This document shows positions 611 to 41,737 of a stretch of DNA of 64,000 nucleotides, in pieces. Every line of letters begins with the position of its first letter. The first letter of the stretch is position 1. Both the position numbers and the translations under genes were made by a program. Source of the DNA: Klebsiella phage vB_KpnM_KB57; sequence record NC_028659.1; one strand, 5' to 3'. The notes below the pieces were generated by a model. That model ran no database searches. It was not told where the DNA came from and saw only the letters and a list, made by a program, of their open reading frames with translations.

Positions 611-616
611 ATTGTT

Positions 617-692: not shown

Positions 693-1093
693 AAGAAATG
701 CTGTTTCCGATTAACAGCCTGGAGGAGTCAGTTAGCCATATCTTGTGAGCTAAGATCCTATATCCAGGATTTAAGTAATCAAAGAAATTTTAGCTTTATG
801 GTTTAGAAGTTTCAAGTTTAAACATTAAGCTTTGAACGATAATCTTTGAATGTTGAATGTTGAAGTCTTTCGAATTCGCGATTCGACAATTTCGATCAAA
901 CCGCATCATTGTGCGGACTGACGGAAACATACGTTTAAGTATCATCCTGTACGATTATGTTCGGAGCAGTTTAACCTCCGGCCCCGGTAGAGGCAAGATG
1001 TTTCTGACTTCGCTAACCAAAAACAGCATTTAAAAACTTTACCAGCTATCCGCAGGAATTACAAGATGTTAATCAAGAATTCCTGCAAATATT

Positions 1094-1741: not shown

Positions 1742-1815
1742 AGAATTCTCCTCTCATGAAATTTAAAATTTGAGTTACTTCAAATATTTGCCGACATCCG
1801 TGTCGGCACTACGCA

Positions 1816-2427
1816 TTAGTTTTTGCCAGTGTTGACAACAACGCCCTGGCGGTTAGCATCAGCTTTTGCGATTTCCAGACGGGTTTCGCGTTCAGCCTTC
1901 AGATCACCACGCGCTGCTTCAAGCTGTTCTGTCAGCATTGCAATACGGTCATCCTTAGCCTTGCTATTCGCAGTAAGTTCTGCAATTGCAACCTTGTGAG
2001 CAGATTCCAGATTTGCCTTAACCGCATTCAGTTCGATTGCAGCGCTACGTTTAACGTCGGCAACTGCGCTTTCTACAGCTTCAGCATTGTTCTGCTGAGA
2101 GATCGCCAGCTCTGCACGAAGGTCTTCAACAACACCCGGTTCTACAGCTACAAGGCCGCGAGCTTTCAGGATAGAATTCAGAACGGAATCTTCGTTTTCC
2201 AGAACTTTGATCTTCAGCTTGGATTTTTCTTCTGCCAGTTTTTCGTTGAACTGAACTTCAATTTGTCCCAGTTCCTGCTGCTTAAACTGAATTTCCTGAC
2301 TGATCTTTTCAGACCCTTCTGCCAGAGATTGCAGTTCAGCGACTACTTTAGTCAGACCAGTAGCGGCAGTGGTTACTGCTTTAGTGGCACGTTCAGTTAC
2401 GGAAATTACAGTTTTAGAATCAGTCAT
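1816..2427 (-). CDS. Hypothetical coiled-coil protein (203 aa)
   Basis: ORF with RBS AAGGAG. Minus-strand promoter TTGACA-N17-TAGTAT immediately upstream. Confidence 0.6.
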   Translation of the reverse strand: MTDSKTVISVTERATKAVTTAATGLTKVVAELQSLAEGSEKISQEIQFKQQELGQIEVQFNEKLAEEKSKLKIKVLENEDSVLNSILKARGLVAVEPGVVEDLRAELAISQQNNAEAVESAVADVKRSAAIELNAVKANLESAHKVAIAELTANSKAKDDRIAMLTEQLEAARGDLKAERETRLEIAKADANRQGVVVNTGKN

Positions 2428-2458
2428 TAAGTTCTCCTTTGCGTTAAATTAGGTTTAA

Positions 2459-2487
2459 ATACTACACTTACAGATTGTGTTTGTCAA
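2459..2487 (-). promoter_or_regulatory. sigma70-like promoter (TTGACA-N17-TAGTAT) for the 1816-2427 gene
   Basis: Reverse complement reads cTTGACAaacacaatctgtaagtgTAGTAT. RBS and ATG follow ~25 nt downstream. Confidence 0.5.
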
Positions 2488-2605
2488 GCGAATCTTTGAT
2501 TATTTCTTCGGTGGTAGGGTTGTTTTCAAACCATGACCAATAATACCAAAGAACAAGCAGGAAAGAGATCACTGACATGATGATAAAGATAACACCGCCA
2601 CTCAT
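2468..2605 (-). CDS. Possible small membrane protein (45 aa, MSGGVIFIIMSVISFLLVLWYYW...)
   Basis: Short ORF with ATGA start/stop overlap to the 2602-2838 ORF and a hydrophobic helix. Overlaps the promoter above, so uncertain. Confidence 0.3.
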   Translation of the reverse strand: MSGGVIFIIMSVISFLLVLWYYWSWFENNPTTEEIIKDSLDKHNL

Positions 2606-2838
2606 CGTACAACGTCCTTAATGGAGTCACAAACTTCACCAACGACGCCTGCGGTAGGTGATACGATAATCTCATCAGCGGCGTCAAGAACTTCTGCGGC
2701 TACATCTACAAAAGGTTCTGCAACAGTTGCCGTGACAACAACAGCAGTACCAACAATATCGCCAGCCATACGTAACAGGGATCCGAACATTTCGTTCTCC
2801 TTTTGGTTTAGATTTGAAACGAGAGCACTTTCGTCCAT
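2602..2838 (-). CDS. Hypothetical small Gly/Val/Ala-rich protein (78 aa)
   Basis: ORF in the tRNA interval. Composition suggests membrane or structural character. Confidence 0.45.
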   Translation of the reverse strand: MDESALVSNLNQKENEMFGSLLRMAGDIVGTAVVVTATVAEPFVDVAAEVLDAADEIIVSPTAGVVGEVCDSIKDVVR

Positions 2839-2918
2839 TTAAGCTATCGCCCTGTGCCACTACGCGAGCCGGGCCAGCAAGAACGGGAGTCGAACCCGTA
2901 TCTCTCTCATTTCAAACT

Positions 2919-2994
2919 TGGTGGGGCATGAAGGATTCGAACCTTCGACCTTCGGCTTAAGGGGCCGCTACACTAACCGCTGTGTTAATACCCC
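2919..2994 (-). tRNA. tRNA gene. Anticodon loop CCCTTAA (candidate CUU Lys, but position 33 is C). CCA encoded.
   Basis: Acceptor GGGGTAT/ATGCCCC, D-arm ACAC-AGCGGTTA-GTGT, T-arm GAAGG-TTCGAAT-CCTTC. Confidence 0.55.
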
Positions 2995-3055
2995 GAAAAC
3001 ATGCCCGTGTTTTTAAAGACGTTTCACGGAATCGTCATTCCCCATGCCGGAGAAA

Positions 3056-3367
3056 TTACTTTTTCTTCTTACTCTTCGTGGCTACGGTTTCAACAACCTT
3101 AGTTTCCTTTACCTTACCAGCACGTTCACGCTTGGTCTTGCCTGTGCGGATGCGGTAAGAAGCAGAGATAATCTGACCACCTTCAATCCGGGTTTCGGAT
3201 TTATACTCTCCTTTACGGCGATCGAAAACTGATACGGTTTTCTCTACACCACCGAGACGCACATCGTGCGGCGCAGAATGAGTCTGAGTAGACTTCGACT
3301 CAAACTGGAAAGGCTGTTTGATAGCGTCGATGGCGGATACTTTCTTAGCAGTATTTTTCTTAGTCAT
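3056..3367 (-). CDS. Lysine-rich basic protein (103 aa). Possible nucleic-acid-binding or abundant virion/internal protein.
   Basis: ORF with RBS AAGGAG and its own TTGACG-N17-TAGTAT promoter. Very basic C-terminus (KSKKKK). Confidence 0.6.
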   Translation of the reverse strand: MTKKNTAKKVSAIDAIKQPFQFESKSTQTHSAPHDVRLGGVEKTVSVFDRRKGEYKSETRIEGGQIISASYRIRTGKTKRERAGKVKETKVVETVATKSKKKK

Positions 3368-3420
3368 AATTTTCTCCTTTGCATTTTATTTGGGAATTTG
3401 TCCCGTTTATGTTCATGAGG

Positions 3421-3449
3421 ATACTAACTCAATCAGATATCCTCGTCAA
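3421..3449 (-). promoter_or_regulatory. sigma70-like promoter (TTGACG-N17-TAGTAT) for the 3056-3367 gene
   Basis: Reverse complement reads TTGACGaggatatctgattgagtTAGTAT. Confidence 0.5.
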
Positions 3450-3459
3450 CATTTTTAAT

Positions 3460-3537
3460 TGGTGGCCCCCGGAGGATTCGAACCTGCCTACCTCTCGATT
3501 ATGAGTCGATTGCTCATACCTAATGAGCTTGAGGGCT
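3460..3537 (-). tRNA. tRNA with anticodon CAU (Met or lysidine-Ile). CCA encoded.
   Basis: D-arm GCTC-ATTAGGTAT-GAGC, anticodon stem TCGA/TCGA with loop CTCATAA, T-loop TTCGAAT, acceptor GGGGGCC-A-CCA. Confidence 0.55.
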
Positions 3538-3539
3538 TA

Positions 3540-3612
3540 TCGTTCAGAGTGGAATTGAACCACTGACCTTGTCCGTATGAAGAACCTGCTCTACCAACTG
3601 AGCTACTGAACG
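3540..3612 (-). tRNA. tRNA, candidate anticodon CAU (loop TTCATAC). CCA not encoded.
   Basis: Acceptor CGTTCAG/CTGAACG, perfect D-arm GCTC-AGTTGGTA-GAGC, T-arm AGTGG-TTCAATT-CCACT. Confidence 0.5.
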
Positions 3613-4439: not shown

Positions 4440-4688
4440 TCAATCCATGATACCGGAGTCGTTGACACCACGACGGTATTCTGCTATGGAAAGTGCTCTG
4501 ATACGTTCTATGAACTCATCATCAGTTTCCCATTCACAGTCATCATCGTAATATTCATCAAGACCATCTTCAATCTCAGGAACCCAAGACTTCTTCTGAT
4601 CTTCATGAACAGATGCCCTATTGAAATCGTGTTTAGCGACTAAATTACGCACTGAAATCAGACCCCTTAATCTGTTTTGCGGTTTCAA
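4440..4688 (-). CDS. Hypothetical acidic protein (82 aa)
   Basis: ORF. Overlaps the next gene by 44 nt, so the true start is uncertain. Confidence 0.4.
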   Translation of the reverse strand: MKPQNRLRGLISVRNLVAKHDFNRASVHEDQKKSWVPEIEDGLDEYYDDDCEWETDDEFIERIRALSIAEYRRGVNDSGIMD

Positions 4689-4956
4689 CGAGATCTACAT
4701 TTCCCGTTTTCGTGTTTACCCAGCGGGTTTCGGTCTTTGTTGCGTGCATTGTATGTCCACAACCAAAGGAAATGATGCAAACACCTGGTCCATGAGCCTC
4801 AAGATCGGCTTCAAACTCCTGTTTACAGACTTTACATTCCATCATTACGGGTCCAAACATTTTAGGCTCCTTAATATAATACGGGTTTGTCGGTGTATTA
4901 TTACATGTCAGGCAATCATGTACCGGGACTTCATGCCACTTGCATGGATTTTCCAT
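4645..4956 (-). CDS. Cys-rich hypothetical protein (103 aa)
   Basis: Several CxxC pairs (CLTC, CKVC, CGH). Confidence 0.45.
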   Translation of the reverse strand: MENPCKWHEVPVHDCLTCNNTPTNPYYIKEPKMFGPVMMECKVCKQEFEADLEAHGPGVCIISFGCGHTMHATKTETRWVNTKTGNVDLVETAKQIKGSDFSA

Positions 4957-4964
4957 AGTGTACC

Positions 4965-4990
4965 TATCAGAAAAGCCCCCGAAGGGCTTA
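4965..4990 (-). terminator. Rho-independent terminator downstream of the NAMPT gene
   Basis: Minus-sense AAGCCCttcggGGGCTT hairpin followed by TTTTCT. Confidence 0.6.
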
Positions 4991-4994
4991 TTGA

Positions 4995-6674
4995 TTACAG
5001 TTGAGCGGCTGCGCGTTCACGAATCGTTGTCAGATCTTCATCGACAATAAGTTTACCGTTGTAGAACACACGACGCAGTTCGTTATCGTCAGACTGTACA
5101 TCTTCAAGCTGACAATTGTCAATCAGTTCTAACTGACCGAACATGTTGCGAACAACTTTGAGGAAACCTTTCGCAGATTTCTTACTGAGGTCGGTCTTAG
5201 GCTCTTTGACAACCATGATTTGCTGACCATCAATAACAGCGCCAGTTGCTTTCACAGCCATACCCAGTGAATCACGGGTTGTGTACTGGGTGGTAAAGGA
5301 ACCAACACCGTACACGATATTGCTGGATGCAAAGCCTTTATCTCTCAGACGTTCAAAGATGTCTTTTGCACGCGCGACAGTGATAGAATCACCGTAGATC
5401 AGACCAATATGACTATCAAGAACCTTATAGCCCTTGGAATTAACTTCACCACCGAAAATATCCCATAAACATTGGACTGCACCTACAGCTTCATGGTAAG
5501 GAACTTCATCTGTTTCATCAATAACATCAAAACCTGAAGACTGCTTGACACGATAGAACTTACCAAGAACCTGAACAAGTTCATATCCGGCTTCCGCATT
5601 GGCATCATAAGCTTCTTCAAAGCTTGCATAATCACCGCCATCTGTGTAGTAACCAGCAATGATATGCTCAGGGACACCGGAGTCCGGGCGGAATACAACA
5701 CGTCCATCGCGAGCCATGATTTCCTGTTTCAGGATCGCTGCTGCTTTGGTGATAATCGCCCAGAAGTCATAACTGTCTGCCACGTAGGAAACAAAACCTT
5801 TAGGGAAAATTTCCGTAATGTAGCGTTTCATGAATTCAACTTCAGCCAAGAAACGTGCTTCGTCCAGAGTCAGTTCCGGGTGTTCACCTTGTAGGCGACC
5901 GACGATAAATCCGATGTTCGTGGTTGCAACAGAGTGTTCAGATGCAGGAATAGAACCAGCAACGAACTTGCCTTTCATGTTGTAATAACGACGAGCATAC
6001 AGAATCGCTGGGATAGTGTCTGTACCCATAGAGTTGATCAGTTGACCGAATTCGCTCTGTGCTGCGTCGTGAGTACCAGCTTCACCGCGATATGCGAAGC
6101 AGTGGTTCTGGAATGCAACATGGTCGTTGTTATCACAGGTCTCAGCAGCCCATTTTTCAGACAGCTTGCGATACTGCCAGAACGTCGTTGCAGTTGTGAT
6201 AGTTTTCCAAGTTTCTGCGGAGATCACACTTTCCAGGAAGTTAGGCAACCAGTAAAAATCCGGGTGCGTATTCTGGATTGTAAACATTGGGACCTGAACC
6301 GGAGAAAGAGTTCCTTCTGGAAGAGCACGGATTTCCAGAGGAAGATAACCGAGATCATGAAGAGCCTCAAAGCCCCAGGTTTCTACCATGCCAATGCCGA
6401 TGCTGGAGTCGCAAACCTCACGATAATCAGCAACCGCTTCTTCTTTCGGGAGGTTGAAGAAGTTATTGTTGAACATGTCGATAAGGAACCACTTAATAAA
6501 TCCCTGAAGGCCAGCAAACATGACACGCTGGTCGTTATCAGCGAAGTGGATGAAGTGCTTCGCATTACGAGGGGTCATGTTATCCTGAACAATTTCAGAA
6601 CGTTTATCATACATGGAGATATGTGAAGGTTTGTAAAAGTCAGCGAACAGGATAGGACTTTCTTGATTAAGCAT
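4995..6674 (-). CDS. nadV: Nicotinamide phosphoribosyltransferase (NAMPT / NadV-like)
   Basis: ~560 aa. N-terminal ILFADFYK...SHISMY resembles NAMPT ILLATDSYK..THY. Internal DSYD motif and GVGSF...RD..G..VKATG C-terminal region. Start set at the internal Met preceded by AAGGAG. Confidence 0.75.
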   Translation of the reverse strand: MLNQESPILFADFYKPSHISMYDKRSEIVQDNMTPRNAKHFIHFADNDQRVMFAGLQGFIKWFLIDMFNNNFFNLPKEEAVADYREVCDSSIGIGMVETWGFEALHDLGYLPLEIRALPEGTLSPVQVPMFTIQNTHPDFYWLPNFLESVISAETWKTITTATTFWQYRKLSEKWAAETCDNNDHVAFQNHCFAYRGEAGTHDAAQSEFGQLINSMGTDTIPAILYARRYYNMKGKFVAGSIPASEHSVATTNIGFIVGRLQGEHPELTLDEARFLAEVEFMKRYITEIFPKGFVSYVADSYDFWAIITKAAAILKQEIMARDGRVVFRPDSGVPEHIIAGYYTDGGDYASFEEAYDANAEAGYELVQVLGKFYRVKQSSGFDVIDETDEVPYHEAVGAVQCLWDIFGGEVNSKGYKVLDSHIGLIYGDSITVARAKDIFERLRDKGFASSNIVYGVGSFTTQYTTRDSLGMAVKATGAVIDGQQIMVVKEPKTDLSKKSAKGFLKVVRNMFGQLELIDNCQLEDVQSDDNELRRVFYNGKLIVDEDLTTIRERAAAQL

Positions 6675-6735
6675 GTTTTGTTTCTCCTTTGTTTGTTTAA
6701 TAGGGCGATTGTACGCCCACTTATTCATTTGTCAA

Positions 6736-7536
6736 TTAAAAGTTTTCGGTCCAGTCGTGGTACGCGTAGATTTCATCAACGCCGCCTTCGTAGATAACTT
6801 CTTTACCGAAGGAAAAGATACCGTGAGTTACGTAAAGAATAACACGTTTTGCTCCTTTTGCCTTCAATGCTTGTGCCAGGGCGATGAATGTGCGACCACC
6901 ATCGCAGATATCATCGACAATAACACACTCGCGGCCTTCAACATCACCGAAAACAGCAGTCCCGGTAATTTCATTTGTCTTCAGATCGCGCACTTTTCCA
7001 GCTTCCACCAGAGGGAGGCGGAGACGATCGGAAACTTTCTGAGCTTTTTTACGTGCTCCGGCGTCAGGTGCCACGATAACAACATCTTTTCCAACCAGGC
7101 CTTCATGGAATTCCGCAATAAGAGCATCCTGACCACGAATTTTAACGTTGTTAAGCAACGCAGCAGAGACATCGCTGTGCGGATCATCGACAATGACCTT
7201 GTCAAACCCAAGAGAGTTGACGATATTTGCGAAAACTTTGATGGATAACGCTTCACCAGGTTGCATTACGCGGTCCTGACGTGCATATGGGATGTACGGC
7301 AAGTGCAAAGTGAACTGTGCAGTATGATGGAGGCCTTCAAGGCGAGAACATGCATCAACCAACATGGCAAGTGCCATAACATCAGTAGAATTTTTAATTT
7401 TCGCAGTGATGTCTACGAAACCAATACCACCTTTCGGGGTATGCGCCATATCGATTCTAACCTGTTCTTCACCACCTTTGAACGTAAAGTGATCGACAGG
7501 AACTACCAGTTTGTTCAGACGAAGTTCTAAACTCAT
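6736..7536 (-). CDS. prs: Ribose-phosphate pyrophosphokinase (PRPP synthetase)
   Basis: 266 aa with the PRPP-binding signature VIVDDICDGGRTF. Sits immediately upstream of NAMPT in the same orientation. Confidence 0.8.
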   Translation of the reverse strand: MSLELRLNKLVVPVDHFTFKGGEEQVRIDMAHTPKGGIGFVDITAKIKNSTDVMALAMLVDACSRLEGLHHTAQFTLHLPYIPYARQDRVMQPGEALSIKVFANIVNSLGFDKVIVDDPHSDVSAALLNNVKIRGQDALIAEFHEGLVGKDVVIVAPDAGARKKAQKVSDRLRLPLVEAGKVRDLKTNEITGTAVFGDVEGRECVIVDDICDGGRTFIALAQALKAKGAKRVILYVTHGIFSFGKEVIYEGGVDEIYAYHDWTENF

Positions 7537-7907
7537 TTCATATATCCTCTATTAACAATTATGTAATGTCTAGGTTTTGCATTCCCATTTGAATCCTGAA
7601 AACCAGAACGTATCCTTCGAATGTATCCAAGAGACTCCATCTTTGTCAAGAACTCTGATACTTTCGGTTGTGACTTTTCGCTCAACCCAAACAGATGACA
7701 CAAAGATTTTTGAGATGGGTAAAAAACTTCATCGCCACCATCTGGGTTTAGACTCTTGAAGTAATCATACCTCCACCAAAGCTTGATTAATCTTTGCAAA
7801 TCTTGGGGTGAGAGACGATCATCAAAAAGCCACTGCGTCGGAATGGTGACATATGCCCCATCTCTGATATTCACAGTGTTGTCACCAATCTTTATCTCCA
7901 CCACCAT
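7533..7907 (-). CDS. Hypothetical protein, possible winged-helix DNA-binding regulator (124 aa)
   Basis: ATGA overlap with prs. RBS AGGAG. First gene of the leftward operon, adjacent to palindromic operators. Confidence 0.45.
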   Translation of the reverse strand: MVVEIKIGDNTVNIRDGAYVTIPTQWLFDDRLSPQDLQRLIKLWWRYDYFKSLNPDGGDEVFYPSQKSLCHLFGLSEKSQPKVSEFLTKMESLGYIRRIRSGFQDSNGNAKPRHYIIVNRGYMK

Positions 7908-8016: not shown

Positions 8017-8176
8017 CAATACTAACTTATCATTTAAACTAACTTATGATCTTTAAAAACAATAAAACATAAGATCTAAAACAAGATCTTTTACTACAGA
8101 GTATAAATACTCTATATCATAGAGTCGGTGACTCGATGAGTTGGATTATCGTATGAAGAAAAGATGATGTCAAGTG

Positions 8177-8204
8177 TTGACATGAAATTTTTAACGTGTA
8201 GAAT
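8177..8204 (+). promoter_or_regulatory. sigma70-like promoter TTGACA-N16-TAGAAT for the rightward operon
   Basis: TTGACA at 8177-8182, TAGAAT at 8199-8204. RBS AAGGAG and ATG at 8230 follow. Confidence 0.6.
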
Positions 8205-10405: not shown

Positions 10406-10605
10406 AAATACACAACATAACCAAAGACAGGATTCATTTCATAATGGATTCAGGAGCTTACGGATCTATCTCCAAGGCAGATGCCATGAAATTTCTGTAT
10501 GCTTCAAATATTCCTCAGGCAAAGCTTGACTCCCGTTCAGGAGAGTGTATTATTGACTCTATCACGAATATACAAGACCTGTGGGAGATATATCATGAAG
10601 TTTAA
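10402..10605 (+). CDS. Hypothetical protein (67 aa)
   Basis: ATGA overlap. Confidence 0.4.
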   Translation: MKIHNITKDRIHFIMDSGAYGSISKADAMKFLYASNIPQAKLDSRSGECIIDSITNIQDLWEIYHEV

Positions 10606-11557
10606 TGTTGACGATCTGGTCGCTAAAAATCTGGTAACCAAAAAGACTTACACCGAAGGCCCGTTCGCGGGTCTGTCTGTGCTGAAGTATAAGAACAATG
10701 TGTTCTGGGATAACCTGTGGCATACTGACCCACGCCTGCTTGAGTGCCGTGGCATGGTTGTTGATTCAGAAGACAACGTGATTATCTGGCCTTTCACTAA
10801 GATTTTCAACCGCTTCGAGAATGGAACTGACCTTCCTCTTGACAAACCGGTTGTTTGTTCCCGCAAGGTCAATGGTTTTATGGCCACAGCGGCAATACAC
10901 AAAGACAAGCTCCTCGTTTCAACAACAGGGACATTGGATTCTGAGTTTTCAGAATTGGCTCGTAAGTACCTCGAAAAAATGAATTTTGATCTGATTTCTT
11001 TCCGTGAAGATTACACTTTCATTTTCGAAATATGCGATAGCAGCGACCCACATATTGTGGAAGAGAAAGAAGGTGCTTATCTGATTGGTGTCCGTGACCT
11101 CGCTTTAAACGGTGTTATGGTTGAAGAGCACAAACTTGATCGCATCGCTGAAGTGATCGGTGCAAAACGTCCTCAATGGGATGTCCGTGCATTTGGCGAT
11201 GTCGTTGCAGCCAGTCATGCTGTTAGCCACGAAGGTTTTGTTGTCCGAAATATCGGGACAGATGACGAAAATAGCGAACTACTTTTGAAAATCAAGTCCC
11301 CACATTACCTGGCGAAGAAATTCCTGATGCGTGGAGGTGATAACAAGTGGGATATGATCTGGGATAACCCGAAAGAGGCCAAGAAGCGTATTGACGAAGA
11401 GTATTACGAGTTGCTAGACCATATTCGTGAGTATTACTCTAAAGATGTTTGGTCCGCGATGGATTCTCAAAAACGACGTCAGGTTGTTGAAGATTACTTC
11501 GCTATCGAAGACATGTTTGATCGTGGTAGTCGTTTTTATGTTGGGGTTCCAAAATGA
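10595..11557 (+). CDS. ATP-dependent RNA ligase (Rnl-type covalent nucleotidyltransferase, ~320 aa)
   Basis: Nucleotidyltransferase motifs: I KVNG, III FIFEIC, IV EGFVVR, V LLLKIKS. Size fits Rnl2. Confidence 0.6.
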   Translation: MKFNVDDLVAKNLVTKKTYTEGPFAGLSVLKYKNNVFWDNLWHTDPRLLECRGMVVDSEDNVIIWPFTKIFNRFENGTDLPLDKPVVCSRKVNGFMATAAIHKDKLLVSTTGTLDSEFSELARKYLEKMNFDLISFREDYTFIFEICDSSDPHIVEEKEGAYLIGVRDLALNGVMVEEHKLDRIAEVIGAKRPQWDVRAFGDVVAASHAVSHEGFVVRNIGTDDENSELLLKIKSPHYLAKKFLMRGGDNKWDMIWDNPKEAKKRIDEEYYELLDHIREYYSKDVWSAMDSQKRRQVVEDYFAIEDMFDRGSRFYVGVPK

Positions 11558-12320: not shown

Positions 12321-12545
12321 ATGTATAAAGGAAATAACCTACGGGAATCGTTCGAAAATTGGTGGGACTCTCTTAGCGATCCTTGGTCAACACCAGAAGC
12401 AAAATCTGCTGCATGGGAAGCCTGGAAGTTTTCAAATTTACGAGTTCTTAATAAAATTCGTTATATGAAAGGTATTACCGAGCGGTGCAATGGTTATAAT
12501 GAGGCTATGAATGAGATAAATAATGTTATAGGGGAAAATCCATGA
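12321..12545 (+). CDS. Hypothetical protein (74 aa)
   Basis: ORF. Confidence 0.4.
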   Translation: MYKGNNLRESFENWWDSLSDPWSTPEAKSAAWEAWKFSNLRVLNKIRYMKGITERCNGYNEAMNEINNVIGENP

Positions 12546-13318
12546 GACGTCTTATCGTTATAAGTGGTGCTGGCTTCTCTGCGGAGAGTGGTGTACGTAC
12601 ATTCCGCACAGATACTGAATCTGGTAAAGCCCTGTGGGATGAATACGACCTTGAGGAGGTTTGTAACATACACGCCTTCCGTGGTAACTTCTACCATAAA
12701 ACGCACATGTTTTATAACAAGCGTCGTGCAGAGTTACCAACGGTACATCCGAATGCGGCGCATCTTCGCGTGGCTGAGTGGTACAGACGTTATCCTGGGC
12801 AGGTTGTTAACATGACAACTAACGTTGATGACCTTCTGGAACGTGCGGGTGTCCCTAAAGAAGATACTCTTTACATCCACGGGTATCTGAAAGAAATTCG
12901 ATACAAGCTCCATGAAGATTCTGAAGAGCAGTTGGTTGACATCGGTTACGATGAGGTAGACCCCGACCAATTTCATTGGTGTAAACCAAACGTAGTTTTC
13001 TTTGGTGAGAATGCTCCGGCCTATGGCCCTATGAATGATACCTTGGAGTCATTGACAAATCAGGATCTTGTAATTGTTGTAGGCTGTTCAAATACAGTTA
13101 TTAACTTCAACTGGGAGTTGTTCCCTGCGGTTATGCGGGGGACCAAAGTTGTTGTTGTTAATCCTGCTATTAGGTATGATGAACAAATGATGTATGAGAA
13201 TGCGGGTGTTCTTGTATATCGTACCGGAGCTGTTGATGCCTTTAATAATCCAGGCCTTATCAAGATAGTTGAGAATCACCTTGAAGGTAAGACACCATTG
13301 CAAAGCAAGGAGAAATAA
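12542..13318 (+). CDS. SIR2-family (sirtuin-like) NAD-dependent protein
   Basis: N-terminal GAGFSAESGVRTFR matches Sir2 GAGIS.ESGIP.FR. HPNAAH (PN.AH) and TTNVDDL (TQNIDGL) motifs present. No obvious CxxC..CxxC zinc ribbon. Confidence 0.65.
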   Translation: MRRLIVISGAGFSAESGVRTFRTDTESGKALWDEYDLEEVCNIHAFRGNFYHKTHMFYNKRRAELPTVHPNAAHLRVAEWYRRYPGQVVNMTTNVDDLLERAGVPKEDTLYIHGYLKEIRYKLHEDSEEQLVDIGYDEVDPDQFHWCKPNVVFFGENAPAYGPMNDTLESLTNQDLVIVVGCSNTVINFNWELFPAVMRGTKVVVVNPAIRYDEQMMYENAGVLVYRTGAVDAFNNPGLIKIVENHLEGKTPLQSKEK

Positions 13319-14631
13319 TGCAACAAGTAAACAGTACACTGTACGCCCTTAATAAAGATGGTTCTTTCCAGTGTTGGAAGGTGTTTATTGCTGGTAATCA
13401 GGTAGTTGTAGAGTTTGGCAAGGTTGGTGGTAAGAAGCAACAAAAGGTTACCACCTGTGAACCGAAGAACGTTGGACGTTCTAACGAAACCACCGCAGAA
13501 CAGCAGGCATTGGCTGAGGCGGTTTCCAAATGGGAGAAACAGGTTCGCCTTGGATATCGTGACGATACAAGTAAGCTTGAGCAGGAAGAGAACTTCTCCC
13601 CAATGCTGGCCCATGATGCAACTAAACGTTCAAAATCAATAGTTTATCCTGCATACGTGCAACCTAAGCTCGATGGTGTACGTGCTCTGGTTACTCTTGA
13701 TGCAGATGGCTTCCCACAATTCAATAGCCGTGGTAACAAACTGTATCCTGTACCGCTTGATTCTGAGTTGTCTGAACAGGTTAAATCCCTTTCTGAGCAT
13801 TCAGGGTTTGACAAATTCGATGGGGAGCTGTACATTCATGGTCTGAGTCTGCAAAAGATTGTCGCTCTTGCTAAGAAGTGGCGTACACCAGAGCAGATCG
13901 AGGAAGAGATTGAAAAGGATTATCAGTCTGACCTGAAGCGCCATCAGAAAGCTATTGACAATGGGGAAGACAGTTGGAAAGATTTCGATGGTGATGTTTA
14001 CTCTGTCGCGATCGAACCAGTTAAAGATGTTGATCGTTATGGCGGCTATTCAAGCCTTGACCTAGAGTACCATATCTTTGACATTCCGTGTTCAAATAAA
14101 CCCTGGATGATTAACGATGGGATTTCAGACTATACAGATAAGGAGTGTCGATACAAAGACCTTATGGACACTGACCACTTCACCTCTGTTATTAAAGCAG
14201 ATAAAATAAATGTGGTCCAAGGTAATGTCTTTGACACTGAGGATGAGGTTAAGCAATCAATCGGACATTTTATGCAGCAAGGCTTTGAGGGTGCTATCAT
14301 CCGAAATTTCAAAGGTGTCTATGAATTTGGTCAGCGATCTTCTGATCTCCAGAAATGGAAACTTTTCCAAGACGGCGAGGCTAAAGTCCTTGATTCTGTG
14401 GAAGATAAGAACGGTGAGGGTGTATTACTCTGCGAAGAGAAAGATGGTACACGTTTCAACTGTAAAATGAAGGGAACCCACGCAGAGAGATCTCAGGAAC
14501 GAATGCTCCTGCTGGTGGGTAAGTTTATTAACTTCACGTTCCAAGCTAGAACTGATGATGGTGTTCCTCAGTTCCCTGTGGGCCAAAGCGTTCGTGAACT
14601 CGATACATTAACATGGGAGCCTGTATACTAA
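13318..14631 (+). CDS. ATP-dependent DNA ligase (437 aa)
   Basis: Motif I PKLDGVRAL (KxDG), size and position within a DNA-metabolism operon. Confidence 0.55.
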   Translation: MQQVNSTLYALNKDGSFQCWKVFIAGNQVVVEFGKVGGKKQQKVTTCEPKNVGRSNETTAEQQALAEAVSKWEKQVRLGYRDDTSKLEQEENFSPMLAHDATKRSKSIVYPAYVQPKLDGVRALVTLDADGFPQFNSRGNKLYPVPLDSELSEQVKSLSEHSGFDKFDGELYIHGLSLQKIVALAKKWRTPEQIEEEIEKDYQSDLKRHQKAIDNGEDSWKDFDGDVYSVAIEPVKDVDRYGGYSSLDLEYHIFDIPCSNKPWMINDGISDYTDKECRYKDLMDTDHFTSVIKADKINVVQGNVFDTEDEVKQSIGHFMQQGFEGAIIRNFKGVYEFGQRSSDLQKWKLFQDGEAKVLDSVEDKNGEGVLLCEEKDGTRFNCKMKGTHAERSQERMLLLVGKFINFTFQARTDDGVPQFPVGQSVRELDTLTWEPVY

Positions 14632-15693: not shown

Positions 15694-16359
15694 ATGAAAG
15701 AAGCTTACGAAACCCTCAACTCAATGCTGCGCCCAACCTCCCTTGTTAAGTATGCGAAACATGTGGTAGATTGGAATTCTATCGCAGCTTCTGCAAAGGG
15801 TGAATTTACCCCATTGGAAAAGCAGTGGGAGTTTGTCGGAGAGGAGTTAGAAGAAACCGTTAAGGCATTAGCCGAAAATGACCGTAAGGAAGTCATTGAT
15901 GGGGCATGTGACTTGTTTGTTGTAGCGTCGTATGCTTATTGGTTGAGTAATAACCATTCACTATCCTTAAATTATAACCCTGATCTTAAGTTTTCGCTTG
16001 GTAAAGCTTTGGATGCTTTTGCGAATGAAGACTACGAAGAAATGCTTAAATTGAGCACAGCTTTGTTGTTTGGTATTGATATGCAATTGGATAAGAACAT
16101 GAGTAGCGTTCTTGAGTCTAACGATTCTAAATATCCAACACTTAACGAAGTTCAGTCTTTGCATAAAGATCTTGACTTGGTAAAAGCCCTTGAGGCAGAA
16201 TGCGCCTGTATCGAACGGCGTAACGGTGGACGTTATGAAGGTGTTCATTTCTCGATTGTTGATGGGAATATGAAAGAAGAGCCTCGTGTCGTATTCTTCG
16301 ACAAAGGTGGTAAAATCATGAAGCCTGGAACTTTCAAAAAGCCAAACATTATTGTTTGA
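15694..16359 (+). CDS. MazG-like all-alpha nucleotide pyrophosphohydrolase domain protein (221 aa), tentative
   Basis: EELEE...E..D acidic cluster (VGEELEETVKALAENDRKEVIDGACD) resembling the MazG EExxE..E..D motif. Confidence 0.35.
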   Translation: MKEAYETLNSMLRPTSLVKYAKHVVDWNSIAASAKGEFTPLEKQWEFVGEELEETVKALAENDRKEVIDGACDLFVVASYAYWLSNNHSLSLNYNPDLKFSLGKALDAFANEDYEEMLKLSTALLFGIDMQLDKNMSSVLESNDSKYPTLNEVQSLHKDLDLVKALEAECACIERRNGGRYEGVHFSIVDGNMKEEPRVVFFDKGGKIMKPGTFKKPNIIV

Positions 16360-17258: not shown

Positions 17259-17422
17259 TGTTGCTAAATCTGAAGGCTGCAACTTGGGAAAAGTTGCAGC
17301 ACTTGGCAAAGTCCAAAGGTAAGTCTGCGGCATCTTATGTTGCAAAAATCGTAGATGACCACGTTGATGAAAACGTAAAGACTGAGTATAAAATCAAAGA
17401 GGAGAAACAAACTAATGCTTAA
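17258..17422 (+). CDS. Ribbon-helix-helix (CopG/Arc-like) small protein (54 aa)
   Basis: MLLNLKAATWEKLQHLAKSKGKSAASYVAKIV fits the RHH beta-strand/helix pattern. Overlaps the start of the SPFH gene. Confidence 0.4.
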   Translation: MLLNLKAATWEKLQHLAKSKGKSAASYVAKIVDDHVDENVKTEYKIKEEKQTNA

Positions 17423-18305
17423 GAATATCAAACGCGTAGTATTTGCTGGTCTGATCGCCCTGGGTGCAATTGGTCTGACTGGTTGTGAACGTGCAACTGT
17501 TCCGGCGGGTTATGTGGGCGTTAAGGTTGACCTGTATGGTGATGAGAAAGGCGTTCAGCAGCAAGAAGTTGGCGTTGGTAAGTATTGGTTAACCTGGAAC
17601 GAAGAGATCTATCAGTTCCCGACGTTCAACCAGTTGAACAACTACGAACAACCGTTTAACTTCCAGACCAAAGATTCTATGACGGTTACTGCGAAGATCG
17701 GTGTTGAGTATTACGTTGACCGCTCTAAGGTTACCAAGATCTTCCAGACCTACCGTAAAGGCGTCCAGGAGATTACCGATGTCAACATTCGTCAGAATAT
17801 CTCTGATGCGTTGATCAAGGAAGCGGGTACAATGGACATTGGTACACTGGCTGGTGATGGTAAATCTCAGCTTCTGGACCGAGTGACCAAGACCCTGAAG
17901 CAGAAACTTGACCCGGTAGGTATCGTTATTGTGAAACTGTCTTACACTGATGACCTTGGTTATCCTCCTCAGGTAACTGCGTCCATCAACGCTAAGATCG
18001 AAGCGACTCAGAAAGCGCTGCTGCGTGAAAACGAAATCCAGCAGACTAAAGCTGAAGCTCAGAAACAAATTGAAGCAGCTCGCGGTGAAGCAGAATCCCA
18101 GCGACTGCAAGCTCAGGGCCAGGCAGATGCTAAAGTAGCTCTGGCAAAAGGTGAAGCAGAATCCATCCAACTGCGTGGTGATGCTCTCCGTAAGAACCCT
18201 GAAATCATGCAACTGGAAGCGATCAACAAGTGGGACGGTAAAACCCCGACCATTATGGGTGGCAACGGTGCAGTACCTTTCGTAAATCTGCCAGCAGGTA
18301 AGTAA
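17415..18305 (+). CDS. SPFH/Band-7 (prohibitin/HflK-like) domain lipoprotein
   Basis: Lipobox LTGC after a signal peptide. Central SPFH-like region and C-terminal AEAQ/coiled-coil repeat typical of the HflK/stomatin family. Confidence 0.65.
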   Translation: MLKNIKRVVFAGLIALGAIGLTGCERATVPAGYVGVKVDLYGDEKGVQQQEVGVGKYWLTWNEEIYQFPTFNQLNNYEQPFNFQTKDSMTVTAKIGVEYYVDRSKVTKIFQTYRKGVQEITDVNIRQNISDALIKEAGTMDIGTLAGDGKSQLLDRVTKTLKQKLDPVGIVIVKLSYTDDLGYPPQVTASINAKIEATQKALLRENEIQQTKAEAQKQIEAARGEAESQRLQAQGQADAKVALAKGEAESIQLRGDALRKNPEIMQLEAINKWDGKTPTIMGGNGAVPFVNLPAGK

Positions 18306-37357: not shown

Positions 37358-38605
37358 ATGAAAGTATATCTGGTAGGTGGCGCTGTTCGTGATGGTCTGC
37401 TGGGTCGTCCAGTTCATGACCGTGATTACGTGGTTGTGGGTGCAACACACGAAGAGATGATTGAAAAAGGTTTCACCCAGGTTGGCGCTGCTTTCCCGGT
37501 GTACTTGCATCCTGAAACCAAAGAAGAATACGCACTGGCCCGTACTGAGCGTAAAACTGGTGAAGGCCATACTGGCTTTGAGACCTTCTTCAGCCCGGAT
37601 GTAACTCTGGAAGAGGATTTATCGCGTCGTGACCTGACGATCAATGCGATGGCTAAAGACATGGAGACAGGATTTATCATTGACCCGTTCAATGGTATGC
37701 ATGACCTGTCGAATATGATTCTTCGTCATACTACGTCGGCGTTCATGGATGACCCTCTGCGTATTCTGCGTCTTTTCCGTCTTAAGTCGCAGTTGGGTGA
37801 GAGTTGGTCTGTTGACCATAAAACATACACACTTATGTTTAATAATCGTCACCGTCTTGCGGAGATTAGCCCTGAGCGGAAATGGAAAGAAATGGAAAAG
37901 GCCTTAAATTCCAAAAACTTCCATAATTACGCCTACCACATGTCGATTATGGGCGAACTTCCAGAACTGGATGCCCTACGTGGAGTAGAGCAGCCACCAG
38001 AACATCACCCTGAGGGAGACGCTTTCATTCATACGTTGATGTGTCTGCAACAGGCCGATAAAACCTTTTGCTCTCCTCAGGTGAAATTTGCGGTGCTGTG
38101 TCATGACTTTGGAAAGGCGATCACTTTCCGTAAGTACGGTAATCTTCTCGGTCATGAAGAGGCGGGTCTTGACCCTGTGCGGACGCTGTGCAGTCGAATT
38201 CGAGTTCCTAACGAATTCAGGGATATTGCACTGTACGTGACAGAGCACCATACTCGTGTGCATTGCATTTTGGGCCGTGGGAATAATAAAGGAATCAAGC
38301 CCCGTTCCATGATGAAGCTTTTCGAGGCCGCAGGTAACGTGGCTAGTCAGAAGACACAGGATAAGGTGTTTTCCTTAGCAGACGCCTGTTTCTGCGATGC
38401 CCGTGGTCGTGGTGCCGCCCACGCAGACAAGGAATACCCTCAAGGAAAAATTCTCCTTGATGCTTTCGAGGCAGTTGTAAATATGGACAGCAAGGCGGTA
38501 TCTTCCGCAATGCTGGAGAAAGGCAAAAGCGGTAAGGAGATCGGTGAGGCGATCCGTGTTGCACGTATCGATGCAATCCGTAATGTTCTTAAGGAGAGAT
38601 CATGA
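37358..38605 (+). CDS. cca: tRNA nucleotidyltransferase (CCA-adding enzyme, class II with HD domain)
   Basis: N-terminal MKVYLVGGAVRDGLLGRPVHDRDYVVVGAT is the canonical class II CCA head motif. HD-domain HHPEGD further on. 415 aa. Confidence 0.85.
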   Translation: MKVYLVGGAVRDGLLGRPVHDRDYVVVGATHEEMIEKGFTQVGAAFPVYLHPETKEEYALARTERKTGEGHTGFETFFSPDVTLEEDLSRRDLTINAMAKDMETGFIIDPFNGMHDLSNMILRHTTSAFMDDPLRILRLFRLKSQLGESWSVDHKTYTLMFNNRHRLAEISPERKWKEMEKALNSKNFHNYAYHMSIMGELPELDALRGVEQPPEHHPEGDAFIHTLMCLQQADKTFCSPQVKFAVLCHDFGKAITFRKYGNLLGHEEAGLDPVRTLCSRIRVPNEFRDIALYVTEHHTRVHCILGRGNNKGIKPRSMMKLFEAAGNVASQKTQDKVFSLADACFCDARGRGAAHADKEYPQGKILLDAFEAVVNMDSKAVSSAMLEKGKSGKEIGEAIRVARIDAIRNVLKERS

Positions 38606-39578: not shown

Positions 39579-39790
39579 TTTTTGCCATTATTTATATTGT
39601 TCTCGGTATCATCACAGCAGTGGCGATAATTTATCACATCCTTCGTGAACAAGATTTACTGAGGGTCGAAGATATTTTAATTTCCCTGATCTGTGGTGTT
39701 TTTTGGTGGTTAGCTATTTTATGCGCTATTTGTGGTTGGGTAGGGAAGCATCTGAATAGCAGGACAGTTGTGTATAGGAGAAAGAAATAA
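39575..39790 (+). CDS. Membrane protein (71 aa, 2 TM)
   Basis: ATGA overlap. Hydrophobic. Confidence 0.45.
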   Translation: MIFAIIYIVLGIITAVAIIYHILREQDLLRVEDILISLICGVFWWLAILCAICGWVGKHLNSRTVVYRRKK

Positions 39791-40281
39791 TGAAGACACG
39801 CATGTATTGCGTAGTAAATCAGTATATTGCAGGTATCCATGCCGGAATTCAGTCTGCTCATGCCATGACAGAAGTGTTCTTAGACTACCCACAGCGTAGG
39901 AACAAGGCCAGCAACCTTCTGTGGGACTGGGCGGATAGCGATAAGACGATGATCGTCCTTAATGGTGGTTACCAGTCAAACTTACAGGACCTTTGCTCAA
40001 AATTGAGTATTCTCAGCGGCACTTACCCGTGGGCCTTTTTCTGTGAAGAACACGATGCTCTCAACGGAGCAATGACAGCAGTTGCTGTTGTGCTGCCGGA
40101 GTATATGTACAACCCACAATACATGGAAGTTACGGATCTCGTATACCGACCAGGCCAACTCGTGGGGCCGCAGATTGCTAACCAGTACCGTGACGAGCTG
40201 GGTAATGTGATCCACAACTACACCCAGACAGAGAAAGACCTGATCACCATGATCAAATCTTTCCGCCTGAAAGGAGAATAG
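39790..40281 (+). CDS. Hypothetical protein (163 aa)
   Basis: ORF. Confidence 0.45.
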   Translation: MKTRMYCVVNQYIAGIHAGIQSAHAMTEVFLDYPQRRNKASNLLWDWADSDKTMIVLNGGYQSNLQDLCSKLSILSGTYPWAFFCEEHDALNGAMTAVAVVLPEYMYNPQYMEVTDLVYRPGQLVGPQIANQYRDELGNVIHNYTQTEKDLITMIKSFRLKGE

Positions 40282-40663: not shown

Positions 40664-41737
40664 ATGATGGAAAATTTCGAAGTGATGCGATGCCACTCAG
40701 GAAGTTTGGCTTATGGCACAAATCTGCCAACTAGTGATGTGGATATCCGGGGTCTGTTCTGCGCCCCTCCTAAATTCATTCGCACACCGTTCTTTAACAT
40801 TAAAGAGCAAACACTGGAAGACGAAGAGGATGGAAAGATTTATGAGCTGACAAACTTCATGAAGTTGTTTGCTGAGATGAATCCTAACATTATCGAGCTG
40901 ATGTTTGTCGATGATGTGGATATCCTGCAAACCTCCGAAGTTTATGAATACCTACGCACAATGGCTCCGGCGCTGCTGACAAGTAAGGTCGCATTTTCCT
41001 TCTCTGGCTATGCGATGGCACAGCTTAAGCGTATTCGCGGTCATGATAAGTGGATCAGCAATCCTCAGCCAGAGGCAAAGCCTACGCAAAAGGAGTTCTT
41101 CCGCTTAGTTCACAACTATAGTGAGAACGAGTTCCTTGCTGGGGCAATTAAACATGATCGTTTCATGGAAGCAATGAACAATCTCAACGATATGTGTATC
41201 CTTGTGCCTTATGGGAATGATATCTACGGGGTGATGGAAAACTTCAGCAGCTCAGGGATGTTCAATGCTGACGGTTCAATTCGCCATGTTGACTATCAGC
41301 AACTTTCTGACTCCGACAAGCGGAGAAAACCTGTCTTTATTGTCAAATATTTGGCAGAGGAACACAAACAGGCCAAAGAGAAGCATCGTAACTATTGGAC
41401 ATGGAAACAGAACCGAAATGAAGTTCGTCACCAACTCGAAGTTGATTTTGGTTATGACACGAAACATGCGATGCACCTTGTACGCCTGATGCGTATGGCA
41501 GAAGAGATTCTTTCTGATGGGAAGGTCCTCGTGAAGCGTCCTGATGCTCAGGAACTTCTCGATATCCGGGCGGGTAAGTGGACGCTTGATGAGCTACTCT
41601 CATGGGCTGATGAGAAGGATCGCTATATCCGTGAGGATTTGTACAAAAAGACACAGCTTCCTAAAATGGCGGATCTCGACCTGTTTGCTAGGGTTCTCAT
41701 GACGGCTCAGGATATGTGTTGGAGTAAACTGGTATGA
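40664..41737 (+). CDS. Pol-beta-superfamily nucleotidyltransferase-fold protein (357 aa) of unknown specificity
   Basis: N-terminal GSLAYGTNLPTSDVDI = minimal NTase signature [GS]-x9-13-DxD. Long helical C-terminal domain. Confidence 0.5.
   Translation: MMENFEVMRCHSGSLAYGTNLPTSDVDIRGLFCAPPKFIRTPFFNIKEQTLEDEEDGKIYELTNFMKLFAEMNPNIIELMFVDDVDILQTSEVYEYLRTMAPALLTSKVAFSFSGYAMAQLKRIRGHDKWISNPQPEAKPTQKEFFRLVHNYSENEFLAGAIKHDRFMEAMNNLNDMCILVPYGNDIYGVMENFSSSGMFNADGSIRHVDYQQLSDSDKRRKPVFIVKYLAEEHKQAKEKHRNYWTWKQNRNEVRHQLEVDFGYDTKHAMHLVRLMRMAEEILSDGKVLVKRPDAQELLDIRAGKWTLDELLSWADEKDRYIREDLYKKTQLPKMADLDLFARVLMTAQDMCWSKLV

Follow-up and report, generated by a model that had tools for sequence, protein, structure and literature searches.

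A locus in the Klebsiella phage vB_KpnM_KB57 (sequence record NC_028659.1), of the genus Mydovirus (Vequintavirinae), very probably constitutes a minimal two-gene NARP1 operon, with adps followed by namat. It occupies positions 4995-7536 of the window, the term used here for the whole 64,000-nucleotide stretch that was analysed, and consists of two minus-strand ORFs, adjacent and co-oriented as an earlier note on this DNA had reported, with adps upstream of namat. Established here are the presence and arrangement of the genes, their families, their clade-specific signatures and their near-identity to catalogued NARP1 proteins. NARP1 at this locus is already known and ordinary; it is a copy of a published pathway, and the locus itself brings no new biology.

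Osterman et al. (bioRxiv 10.1101/2024.02.11.579819) use NARP1 for the operon of a Prs-like and a Nampt-like gene (Adps and Namat) and NARP2 for the combination of Nampt with Nmnat (KVP40 type). The earlier note had read the pair as a NAMPT and a PRPP synthetase, forming a NARP2-type module that rebuilds NAD+ from nicotinamide with ribose-5-P and ATP. The families and folds of that reading stand, but the clades and signatures are those of Namat and Adps. The NARP2 label falls, a Prs-like and Nampt-like pair being NARP1 in the published scheme. The proposed chemistry also gives way: the characterised enzymes of the clade convert ADPR and ATP to ADPR-PP, and ADPR-PP and nicotinamide to NAD+. The general function proposed, a two-gene NAD+ reconstitution module countering NAD+-depleting immunity, appears right by homology to tested modules.

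The first gene, adps (6736..7536, minus strand, 266 aa), encodes a predicted ADP-ribose pyrophosphate synthetase that is PRPP-synthetase-like. The second, namat (4995..6674, minus strand, 559 aa from the ATG at 6674), encodes a predicted nicotinamide ADP-ribose transferase that is NAMPT-like. The namat ORF reaches a first ATG at 6728, which would give 577 aa (4995..6728). The start at 6674 is the most likely one because AGGAG (6688-6684) lies 9 nt upstream of it and 6728 has no Shine-Dalgarno sequence; the same start (MLNQESP) is also used for the namat orthologue by RefSeq for KpS8 and in the published table. With this start the spacer between the adps stop and the namat ATG (6675..6735, minus strand) measures 61 nt; a start at the first ATG would leave 7 nt. 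Reading and consensus scanning of the spacer gave three elements on the minus strand as consensus matches only: this candidate Shine-Dalgarno sequence, a promoter-like TTGACA-16-TACAAT (6735-6708) and a hairpin GGGCG-TACAAT-CGCCC (6718-6703).

Upstream of adps lies a 124-aa gene (7533..7907, minus strand; PHROG 8453, with a weak wHTH/DnaD-like match); its stop codon and the start codon of adps overlap in ATGA. It probably shares a transcription unit with adps and is no NARP1 component; tblastn gave no homologue of it beside NARP1 in either Bas63 or ICP1 (E > 0.3). The small genes on the flanks were also considered as a conserved third part of NARP1, but this was rejected because they show no similarity to the neighbourhoods in Bas63 or ICP1. 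Promoter and terminator scans found plausible sites around the locus. One promoter-like site (TTGACA-17-GATAAT, 11/12; 8145..8173, minus strand) heads the leftward unit of the 124-aa gene, adps and namat, and is divergent to a plus-strand promoter-like site at 8177-8204. Promoter-like sites in the region are not above the number in shuffled sequences (13 versus 9.4 +/- 3.2), so the site at 8145..8173 is only suggestive, and we infer the operon boundaries.

Both window proteins match families at E 1e-49 to 1e-194. Profile matches of the 559-aa protein are to PF04095 (E 3e-27), NF006629 (480 bits, cut-off 405) and PHROG 448, 'nicotinamide phosphoribosyl transferase' (E 1e-194). The 266-aa protein matches PF13793, PF00156, PF14572, TIGR01251 (168 bits, cut-off 113) and PHROG 619 (E 7e-95). 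The profile check that the earlier note had proposed (PF04095, PF13793, PF14572) therefore recovers its families, but it passes without separating the pathways, because Pfam and PHROG names are blind to the Prs/Adps and Nampt/Namat splits. Both motifs cited in the earlier note were located: DSYD lies at aa 300 in the numbering of the 559-aa form, and VIVDDICDGGRTF, attributed to a ribose-phosphate pyrophosphokinase, spans aa 205-217 in the 266-aa protein. Nor are catalytic residues missing; they are intact in both proteins.

The 559-aa protein can be assigned to the Namat clade and not to the Nampt clade. Its closest PDB relatives are 9W5X and 9W5W (SPbetaL1 Namat, E 4e-123), with canonical NAMPTs at ~1e-48 to 1e-51. 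It is 41.7% identical to Bas63 Namat (383 bits) and 40.2% identical to SPbetaL1 Namat (392 bits), versus 27.1% (146 bits) for the KVP40-type Nampt of Vibrio phage nt-1. The NAMPT-like catalytic core is intact (D12, Y14, F193, R196, D219, A244, H247, R329, D331, G428 and D429); H247 is the catalytic His, and R329 corresponds to R306 of SPbetaL1.

Two motifs carry the assignment further. Namats have a specific selectivity-clamp helix (SCH) with the consensus GSX-Phi-X-Phi-X-Phi-TRD and, at positions 3 and 7, aromatic residues that stack on adenine (PMC12774641). Motif comparison places the SCH of the window protein, GSFTTQYTTRD, at aa 458-468 (5271..5303, minus strand). It fits the consensus with F460 at position 3, Y464 at position 7 and TRD kept; position 5 is Thr and not aromatic. 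The corresponding helices are GSFTYQYNTRD in SPbetaL1, GSYTYQYMTRD in Bas63 and GSYTYQYVTRD in ICP1, and GGGLLQQLDRD in the NARP2-type Nampt of nt-1. The selectivity-clamp loop (SCL), located in the same way, is NAKHFIHFADNDQ at aa 37-49 (6528..6566, minus strand). It is long, like that of Bas63 (SDKWFNSPLAIDG), and the loop of nt-1 Nampt is short (GGKFDK). The third SCL residue is described as R, K or Y, the fourth residue stacking on adenine if the third is K or Y, and a 'Lys-type' SCL has been reported (PMC12774641). The window SCL starts N-A-K-H, with K39 third and H40 fourth as the candidate stacking residue; Bas63 has K-W there (W43). The window protein keeps nearly all of the NAD+ contacts of SPbetaL1 Namat; identical are D13, Y15, F189, R192, D215, A242, R306, D308, G360, D361, G390, S391, F392, Y396, T398, R399 and D400 (SPbetaL1 numbering). 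The ligand contacts that differ from the solved enzymes are S190 to A194, A362 to S430 and Y394 to T462, along with the candidate SCL stacker, which is His and not Arg or Trp.

The 266-aa protein likewise can be placed, by comparison with validated and solved homologues, in the Adps clade and not in the Prs clade. TIGR01251, a broad subfamily model, is the sole NCBIfam Prs model whose cut-off the protein exceeds; on the PRK-named models (equivalog or subfamily) it reaches 25-47% of the cut-offs, for example 137 versus 297. It is 41.6% identical to the validated Bas63 Adps (158 bits) and 38.9% identical to the structurally solved ICP1 Adps (146 bits), and 31.3% identical to E. coli Prs (97 bits). 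A sequence search of the PDB found no Adps structures, the best matches being canonical PRPS at ~1e-26; the ICP1 sequence was accordingly taken from GenBank, and 19 residues that the paper mentions by name served to verify its numbering. The window protein covers positions 20-267 of the 309 in TIGR01251, and aligns to residues 36-257 of the 316 in E. coli Prs before ending ~20 residues on. By alignment its end falls ~40-45 residues short of the PRPS C-terminus, and the C-terminal alpha11-alpha12 module of PRPS is absent.

Alignment also locates the PP-loop region, DDICDGGRTF, at aa 208-217 (6886..6915, minus strand). Bas63 Adps has the identical sequence, ICP1 has DDICDGAASF and E. coli Prs has DDMIDTGGTL. 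D208, D209 and D212 are the counterparts of ICP1 D212, D213 and D216, which bind ADPR's distal ribose and the phosphates of ATP, as mutagenesis or structure indicates (PMC13586617). The catalytic beta-hairpin, KVRDLKTNEI, lies at aa 181-190 (6967..6996, minus strand), aligned with KVRNLKTGEI in Bas63 and KIRDVKTGDI in ICP1; E. coli Prs has DKRRPRANVS at that place. Its K181 is the aligned counterpart of ICP1 K185; when that lysine is substituted, formation of ADPR-PP is abolished (PMC13586617). ICP1 residues R87, H121, D161, K185, D212, D213 and D216 are all conserved, and the acceptor and catalytic residues kept in the window protein are R86, H120, D158, K181, D208, D209, I210, C211 and D212. 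Ligand contacts that differ from ICP1 are F92 (M91 in the window), A218/A219 (G214/R215) and F223 (A219); Bas63 is the same or similar at these positions.

Near-identical orthologues of both proteins have already been placed in published trees. The Adps of KpS8/BIS47 is identical to the window protein at 265 of 266 positions and is flagged 'Namat within 10 genes: Yes' in Table S1 of Osterman et al. (bioRxiv 10.1101/2024.02.11.579819). Table S2 of that work gives the label 'Adps-associated' to the Namats of KpS8, BIS47, Mydo and 4MG. Against that proximity limit of 10 genes, the window adps and namat are directly adjacent. The Bas63 accession is MZ501086 (Table S3 of the same work).

The pathway that we propose by homology would begin with a host NADase effector of the SIR2, TIR or SEFIR type cleaving NAD+ to ADP-ribose and nicotinamide during infection. 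Adps would take the beta-gamma pyrophosphate from ATP and attach it to ADPR at the 1'' hydroxyl of the distal ribose, so that ADPR-pyrophosphate and AMP are formed. Namat would then swap the pyrophosphate for nicotinamide and so yield NAD+ directly, with neither NMN as an intermediate nor an adenylyltransferase. With its NAD+ pool restored, the phage could escape NAD+-depletion immunity. Both reactions and the anti-defence phenotype are predicted for the window pair from about 39-42% identity to enzymes that have been tested. Conversion of ADPR and ATP to ADPR-PP, and then of ADPR-PP and nicotinamide to NAD+, has been shown with homologues, namely those of SPbetaL1, Bas63 (through in vivo metabolites), ICP1 and DyoEdafos. 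NARP1 of Bas63, Fado and SPbetaL1 protects phage against NAD+-depleting defence (Osterman et al., bioRxiv 10.1101/2024.02.11.579819); the defences countered by such modules are SIR2-HerA, DSR1/2, type I Thoeris and SEFIR. Namat enzymes moreover keep PRPP-dependent NMN synthesis in vitro, so some NMN output is possible.

That last activity is one point in favour of taking the pair as a true PRPP synthetase and a true Nampt, with ribose-5-P and ATP giving PRPP, PRPP and nicotinamide giving NMN, and an NMN adenylyltransferase giving NAD+. The Prs and NAMPT/NAPRT names from Pfam, NCBIfam and PHROG point the same way, as does a NadR-like NMNAT encoded elsewhere in Mydovirus relatives (KpS8 and others; intact in KpS8). 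We nonetheless consider this reading very unlikely. By definition NARP2 comprises a KVP40-clade Nampt, not Adps-associated, and an Nmnat, whereas the window pair has Adps immediately upstream, and no phages carrying both NARP1 and NARP2 were found (Osterman et al., bioRxiv 10.1101/2024.02.11.579819). The 27% identity to KVP40-type Nampt against 40-42% to Namats, the Namat clamp motif in place of GGGLLQQLDRD, and a small protein with the Adps hairpin and PP loop but no PRPS C-terminal module all tell against it. SPbetaL1 Adps moreover gave no product in a canonical Prs assay (substrates 'PRPP and ATP' in the text of the paper, 'ribose-5-phosphate' in the Fig. 2D legend).

Prs and Nampt alone would in any case get no further than NMN; rebuilding NAD+ also takes an NMN adenylyltransferase. 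No CTP_transf_like NMNAT was found in the 64-kb window of the ~137-145 kb genome, where tblastn with the NadR-like N-terminus was also empty; NDO71, the closest relative, has a deletion of the NMNAT domain. A route that stopped at NMN would thus need host enzymes for its completion. Bas63 NARP1 is functional when the host is without its genes for NMN salvage, pncC and nadR (Osterman et al., bioRxiv 10.1101/2024.02.11.579819). Two window genes, 40664..41737 and 39790..40281 ('nucleotidyltransferase' and 'hydrolase' in KpS8), were considered as a NatV-like Nmnat/Nudix and rejected: the first encodes an RlaP-family protein and the second an unassigned protein. The candidate 'nucleotidyltransferases' of the window are the RlaP protein and a CCA-adding enzyme.

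Slighter still is the chance that the pair mainly recycles ADPR and nicotinamide from the phage's own NAD+ consumers, or boosts metabolic NAD+, and does not counter defence: a Sir2-family gene (12542..13318; PF02146, E 1e-23) lies ~5 kb off on the divergent arm as a candidate NAD+ consumer, NadR-like and PnuC genes in relatives suggest a wider investment in NAD+ supply, and NARP1 occurs outside mobile elements in some bacteria, possibly for housekeeping, but in tested phages ADPR-PP was seen only with a defence system present, NARP1 phages showed no NAD+ rise in defence-free cells, and sirtuin deacylases yield O-acyl-ADPR rather than free ADPR.

The NARP1 operon may stand within a larger set of NAD+ genes. 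Neither of the NARP3 genes (a NadR-like bifunctional enzyme and a PnuC-like transporter) was found in the 64-kb window. In KpS8-type genomes the NadR-like and PnuC genes are non-adjacent, with six small ORFs between them, and NDO71 keeps PnuC, its NMNAT domain being lost. It is conceivable, if rather improbable, that Mydovirus phages run a layered NAD+ economy, undescribed as such, made up of minimal NARP1, a split NARP3-like NadR/PnuC that is being lost in some lineages, and a Sir2-family enzyme. In such an economy residual PRPP-to-NMN activity of Namat could feed the NadR-like NMNAT of KpS8-type genomes as a hybrid NARP2-like branch, or what the phage's own Sir2 produces could be recycled by NARP1. 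What was seen is co-occurrence of the NARP1, NadR/PnuC and Sir2 genes, which says nothing on interaction.

The value of the NARP1 locus is mostly that of a correction and an annotation point. The database names 'ribose-phosphate pyrophosphokinase' and 'nicotinamide phosphoribosyltransferase' mislead towards PRPP/NMN chemistry or towards the wrong NARP label; the features that tell NARP1 from the PRPP route are short sequence motifs, a C-terminal truncation and gene partnership. Carriage of NARP1 predicts resistance of this Klebsiella phage to NAD+-depletion defences of the SIR2, TIR and SEFIR types; without a Macro-domain Adpp the phage should stay sensitive to aRES-type defence. Both predictions are relevant to the choice of therapeutic Klebsiella phages.

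Among known systems, E. coli Prs, a canonical class I PRPP synthetase, has the fold and core catalytic residues of the window Adps, but it also has alpha11-alpha12 and the flexible loop DKRRPRAN, both missing in the window protein. Canonical NAMPT (human, Xanthomonas) similarly matches the window Namat in fold and catalytic core but lacks the clamp motif. NARP2 (Nampt NadV and Nmnat NatV; Vibrio phage KVP40 and its relative nt-1) has the same end product, NAD+, the same anti-defence logic and the NAMPT fold and core. It differs in using the PRPP to NMN route, in needing an adenylyltransferase and in having no Adps, and nt-1 Nampt lacks the adenine clamp of the window protein.

NARP1-AP (Adps, the Macro-domain phosphatase Adpp and Namat) and RyDEP-associated NARP1 have the core Adps and Namat in common with the window. 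No Macro (PF14519, PF01661, PF20016) or RyR (PF02026) protein was found by hmmscan within two genes or in the ~1-18 kb scanned; the published Macro search relied on HHpred, a method of greater sensitivity. The neighbours of adps and namat (124, 113, 103 and 82 aa) have no Macro-domain Pfam match, and the immediate neighbours are too short for a Macro domain. Since aRES-type defence makes ADPR-1''-phosphate and no Macro-domain Adpp lies near NARP1, the window copy would be expected to fail against it.

SPbetaL1 Namat (9W5X, 9W5W), from a Bacillus phage, is ~490 aa long, is without both insertions of the window protein, and has an SCL that uses Arg40 directly. ICP1 NARP1 (gp228 and its neighbour), from a Vibrio phage, has the same Adps-first order, adjacent and co-oriented; its Adps (UniProt F1D1Q1) has a donor site of A218-A219-S220 and F223 where the window has G-R-T and A, and its F92 is Met in the window.

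Bas63 (JohannRWettstein), an Escherichia phage whose NARP1 comprises genes 79-80 (Osterman et al. 2024), has the same order of adps and namat with a short spacer. Its Adps has the identical PP loop, a matching hairpin (K-V-R-x-L-K-T-x-E-I) and a likewise truncated PRPS C-terminal module, but at 293 aa it differs from the 266-aa window Adps, which is without a C-terminal tail. Its Namat is of the 'long form', as in the window, with insertions at two places, one behind the catalytic His region and the other behind RPDSG..I..GY, a consensus SCH and a Lys-type SCL; the differences are a Trp in the stacking position of the SCL where the window has His, Tyr at SCH position 5 where the window has Thr, and a second insertion that is shorter in the window. 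The two systems are only ~42% identical in both proteins, and they come from different phage groups, Mydovirus/Vequintavirinae for the window and Felixounavirus for Bas63.

On the minus strand, two adjacent open reading frames lie exactly where the earlier note had placed them, encoding a small Prs-like protein (adps, 6736..7536, 266 aa) and a large Nampt-like protein (namat, 4995..6728, 577 aa counted from the first ATG). The note's assignment to the NAMPT and Prs families is borne out, far beyond chance, by profile searches. The large protein matches NAPRTase in Pfam (PF04095, E 3e-27), NF006629 in NCBIfam (480 bits against a cut-off of 405) and PHROG 448 'nicotinamide phosphoribosyl transferase' (E 1e-194). 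For the small protein, the families recovered in Pfam are Pribosyltran_N, Pribosyltran and Pribosyl_synth, together with TIGR01251 in NCBIfam (168 bits against a cut-off of 113) and PHROG 619 (E 7e-95). Both strings that had been quoted, DSYD and VIVDDICDGGRTF, are found in the pair's proteins, and the catalytic residues looked for in each indicate intact active sites.

The true start of namat is almost certainly the ATG at 6674, giving 559 aa, because AGGAG stands 9 nt before it and a Shine-Dalgarno sequence is lacking at the ATG at 6728; RefSeq and the tables in print begin the protein there too (MLNQESP). Ahead of adps-namat lies a leftward promoter-like site (8173-8145, consensus match only), from which the two genes are likely co-transcribed. 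The 61 nt spacer between them (6675..6735, minus strand) contains, by consensus matches only, a near-consensus sigma-70-like promoter (TTGACA-16-TACAAT) and a hairpin. The hairpin (GGGCG/CGCCC), just upstream of the namat AGGAG ribosome-binding site, has the -10 hexamer of the promoter-like site as its loop. This element may serve as a promoter inside the operon, or else influence how the RNA is processed or how stable it is.

The pair is a real and already known system, NARP1, and near-identical orthologues stand in the tables of the original paper. That work started from a Bas63 operon of a gene annotated Prs followed by one annotated Nampt, and these annotations mislead: Adps pyrophosphorylates ADP-ribose to ADPR-PP, and Namat joins ADPR-PP with nicotinamide to form NAD+, together making up NARP1, while NARP2 is the other pair, KVP40-type Nampt with Nmnat, whose route begins at PRPP and passes through NMN (Osterman et al., bioRxiv 10.1101/2024.02.11.579819). 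The label 'NARP2-type' in the earlier note therefore fails, since a Prs-like with a Nampt-like protein is NARP1, and its chemistry, from nicotinamide and ribose-5-P/ATP, does not fit such a pair, whose characterised enzymes go via ADPR-PP; a genuine Prs and Nampt pair would end at NMN. NARP2 moreover requires an Nmnat, and the window has none: the annotated 'nucleotidyltransferase' is of the RlaP family, another candidate proves to be a CCA-adding enzyme, and searching the window by tblastn with a NadR-like NMNAT domain gave no match.

Namat is closest to its characterised NARP1 counterparts, those of Bas63 (41.7% identity, 383 bits), SPbetaL1 (40.2%, 392 bits) and ICP1 (40.8%, 325 bits), as against 27.1% and 146 bits for the KVP40-type Nampt of phage nt-1. 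Among the matches listed in a tblastn search of 50,697 phage records, phages with an adjacent Prs-like gene gave 35-48% identity, and KVP40-type and T4-like Nampts 24-28%. The top PDB relatives (E 4e-123) are 9W5X and 9W5W, SPbetaL1 Namat with nicotinamide and with NAD+ bound according to the depositors' paper, as against about 1e-48 to 1e-51 for human, rodent and Xanthomonas NAMPTs. The selectivity-clamp helix, with consensus GSX-Phi-X-Phi-X-Phi-TRD (PMC12774641), reads GSFTTQYTTRD and keeps both adenine-stacking aromatics (F460, Y464) as well as T466, R467 and D468; it is like those of SPbetaL1 (GSFTYQYNTRD), Bas63 (GSYTYQYMTRD) and ICP1 (GSYTYQYVTRD) and unlike GGGLLQQLDRD, found at this position in NARP2-type Nampt. 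The selectivity-clamp loop is a long one of Lys type, with N-A-K-H where Bas63 has S-D-K-W. All catalytic-core residues are kept, including H247 and R329, the latter equivalent to SPbetaL1 R306, whose mutation kills NARP1 (PMC12774641). Two insertions make the protein ~70 residues longer than SPbetaL1 Namat, and the validated Bas63 Namat has both.

Adps is 41.6% identical to Bas63 Adps (158 bits), 38.9% to that of ICP1 (146 bits) and 31.3% to E. coli Prs (97 bits), and it scores far under the cut-offs of all PRK-named NCBIfam Prs models. UniProt F1D1Q1 carries the numbering of ICP1 Adps, 19/19 residues named in the paper being in agreement (PMC13586617). Aligned with it, the window's Adps keeps, in its own numbering, R86, H120, D158, K181, D208, D209 and D212; K181 corresponds to the essential ICP1 K185 (PMC13586617). 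Its PP loop, DDICDGGRTF, is the one seen in Bas63 (DDMIDTGGTL in E. coli Prs), and its hairpin, KVRDLKTNEI, is likewise that of an Adps, with DKRRPRAN as the E. coli Prs counterpart. It is without the C-terminal alpha11-alpha12 module, an absence described as a defining signature (PMC13586617).

The closest relative of the window is Klebsiella phage vB_KpnM_NDO71 (98.9% identity to the region), followed by KpS8, BIS47, Seu621, Mydo and others (93-98%), all Mydovirus, Vequintavirinae. A single difference, V148A, separates this Adps from that of KpS8/BIS47, and Table S2 enters the Nampt-like partners of these catalogued Adps as 'Adps-associated' (Osterman et al., bioRxiv 10.1101/2024.02.11.579819).

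Extended NARP1 forms add a Macro-domain phosphatase, Adpp, or a RyR-domain glycosidase, RyDEP. Neither domain was found among the neighbours of the pair, and the small flanking genes are not kept beside NARP1 in Bas63 or ICP1; the locus is therefore the minimal two-gene form. One flanking gene (4645..4956, minus) encodes 103 aa, Cys-rich (CxxC ... CxxC ... C..C.H; PHROG 12146), with a weak RING-like match; the other (7533..7907, minus) encodes a wHTH/DnaD-like protein of 124 aa (PHROG 8453) and is translationally coupled to adps, whose ATG, preceded by GAGGA, overlaps its stop (ATGA). The function that had been proposed, countering NAD+ depletion, is probably right, judging from characterised homologues at 39-42% identity: Adps would use ATP to convert ADPR freed by host NADases to ADPR-PP, Namat would combine this with nicotinamide to restore NAD+, and the phage would thereby escape SIR2-HerA, DSR1/2, type I Thoeris and SEFIR-type defence. 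This copy should not overcome aRES defence, because Adpp is missing.

Elsewhere the plus strand encodes a T4 Rnl1-type RNA ligase (10499..11557, PF09511), the CCA-adding tRNA nucleotidyltransferase with an HD domain (37358..38605, PF01743 and PF01966) and the RlaP-family nucleotidyltransferase (40664..41737, PF10127). A run of phage tRNA genes occupies 182-3612, including one ARAGORN call at 536-610 with an odd 2-base anticodon. The RNA-repair-like set and the tRNA genes together suggest a counter to tRNA-targeting defences. The early rightward arm encodes a MazG/PRA-PH-like nucleotide pyrophosphohydrolase (15694..16359, plus, PF01503) and an SPFH/Band-7 domain protein (17415..18305, plus, PF01145, E 1.5e-21).

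A Sir2-family protein of 258 aa (12542..13318, plus; PF02146, E 1.3e-23) has as its best NCBIfam match 'NAD-dependent protein deacylase', at 114 bits under a 243-bit cut-off. Its gene belongs to the rightward arm, divergent from the NARP1 pair and ~5 kb away from it, and directly precedes a gene for an ATP-dependent DNA ligase (13318..14631), so that a putative NAD+-consuming enzyme is encoded near the NAD+-rebuilding module. The full annotation of KpS8 (NC_048873) contains a NadR-like protein (CTP_transf_like and AAA_28) and a PnuC transporter (PF04973), at 10511-11599 and 13320-14048 with six small ORFs between them, ~50 kb from the pair and beyond the part covered by the window. In NDO71 (2447-2839 and 4841-5545) a deletion removed the NMNAT domain of the NadR-like protein, leaving residues 229-359, and PnuC is intact. 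The paper on NARP3 makes no mention of its co-occurrence with NARP1 (PMC13464706). Only mildly new, and contextual, is the point that this lineage joins NARP1, a Sir2-family gene and a NadR/PnuC pair that is split and, in some members, in decay; as found in KpS8, the NadR/PnuC pair resembles NARP3 and not NARP2 (PMC13464706).
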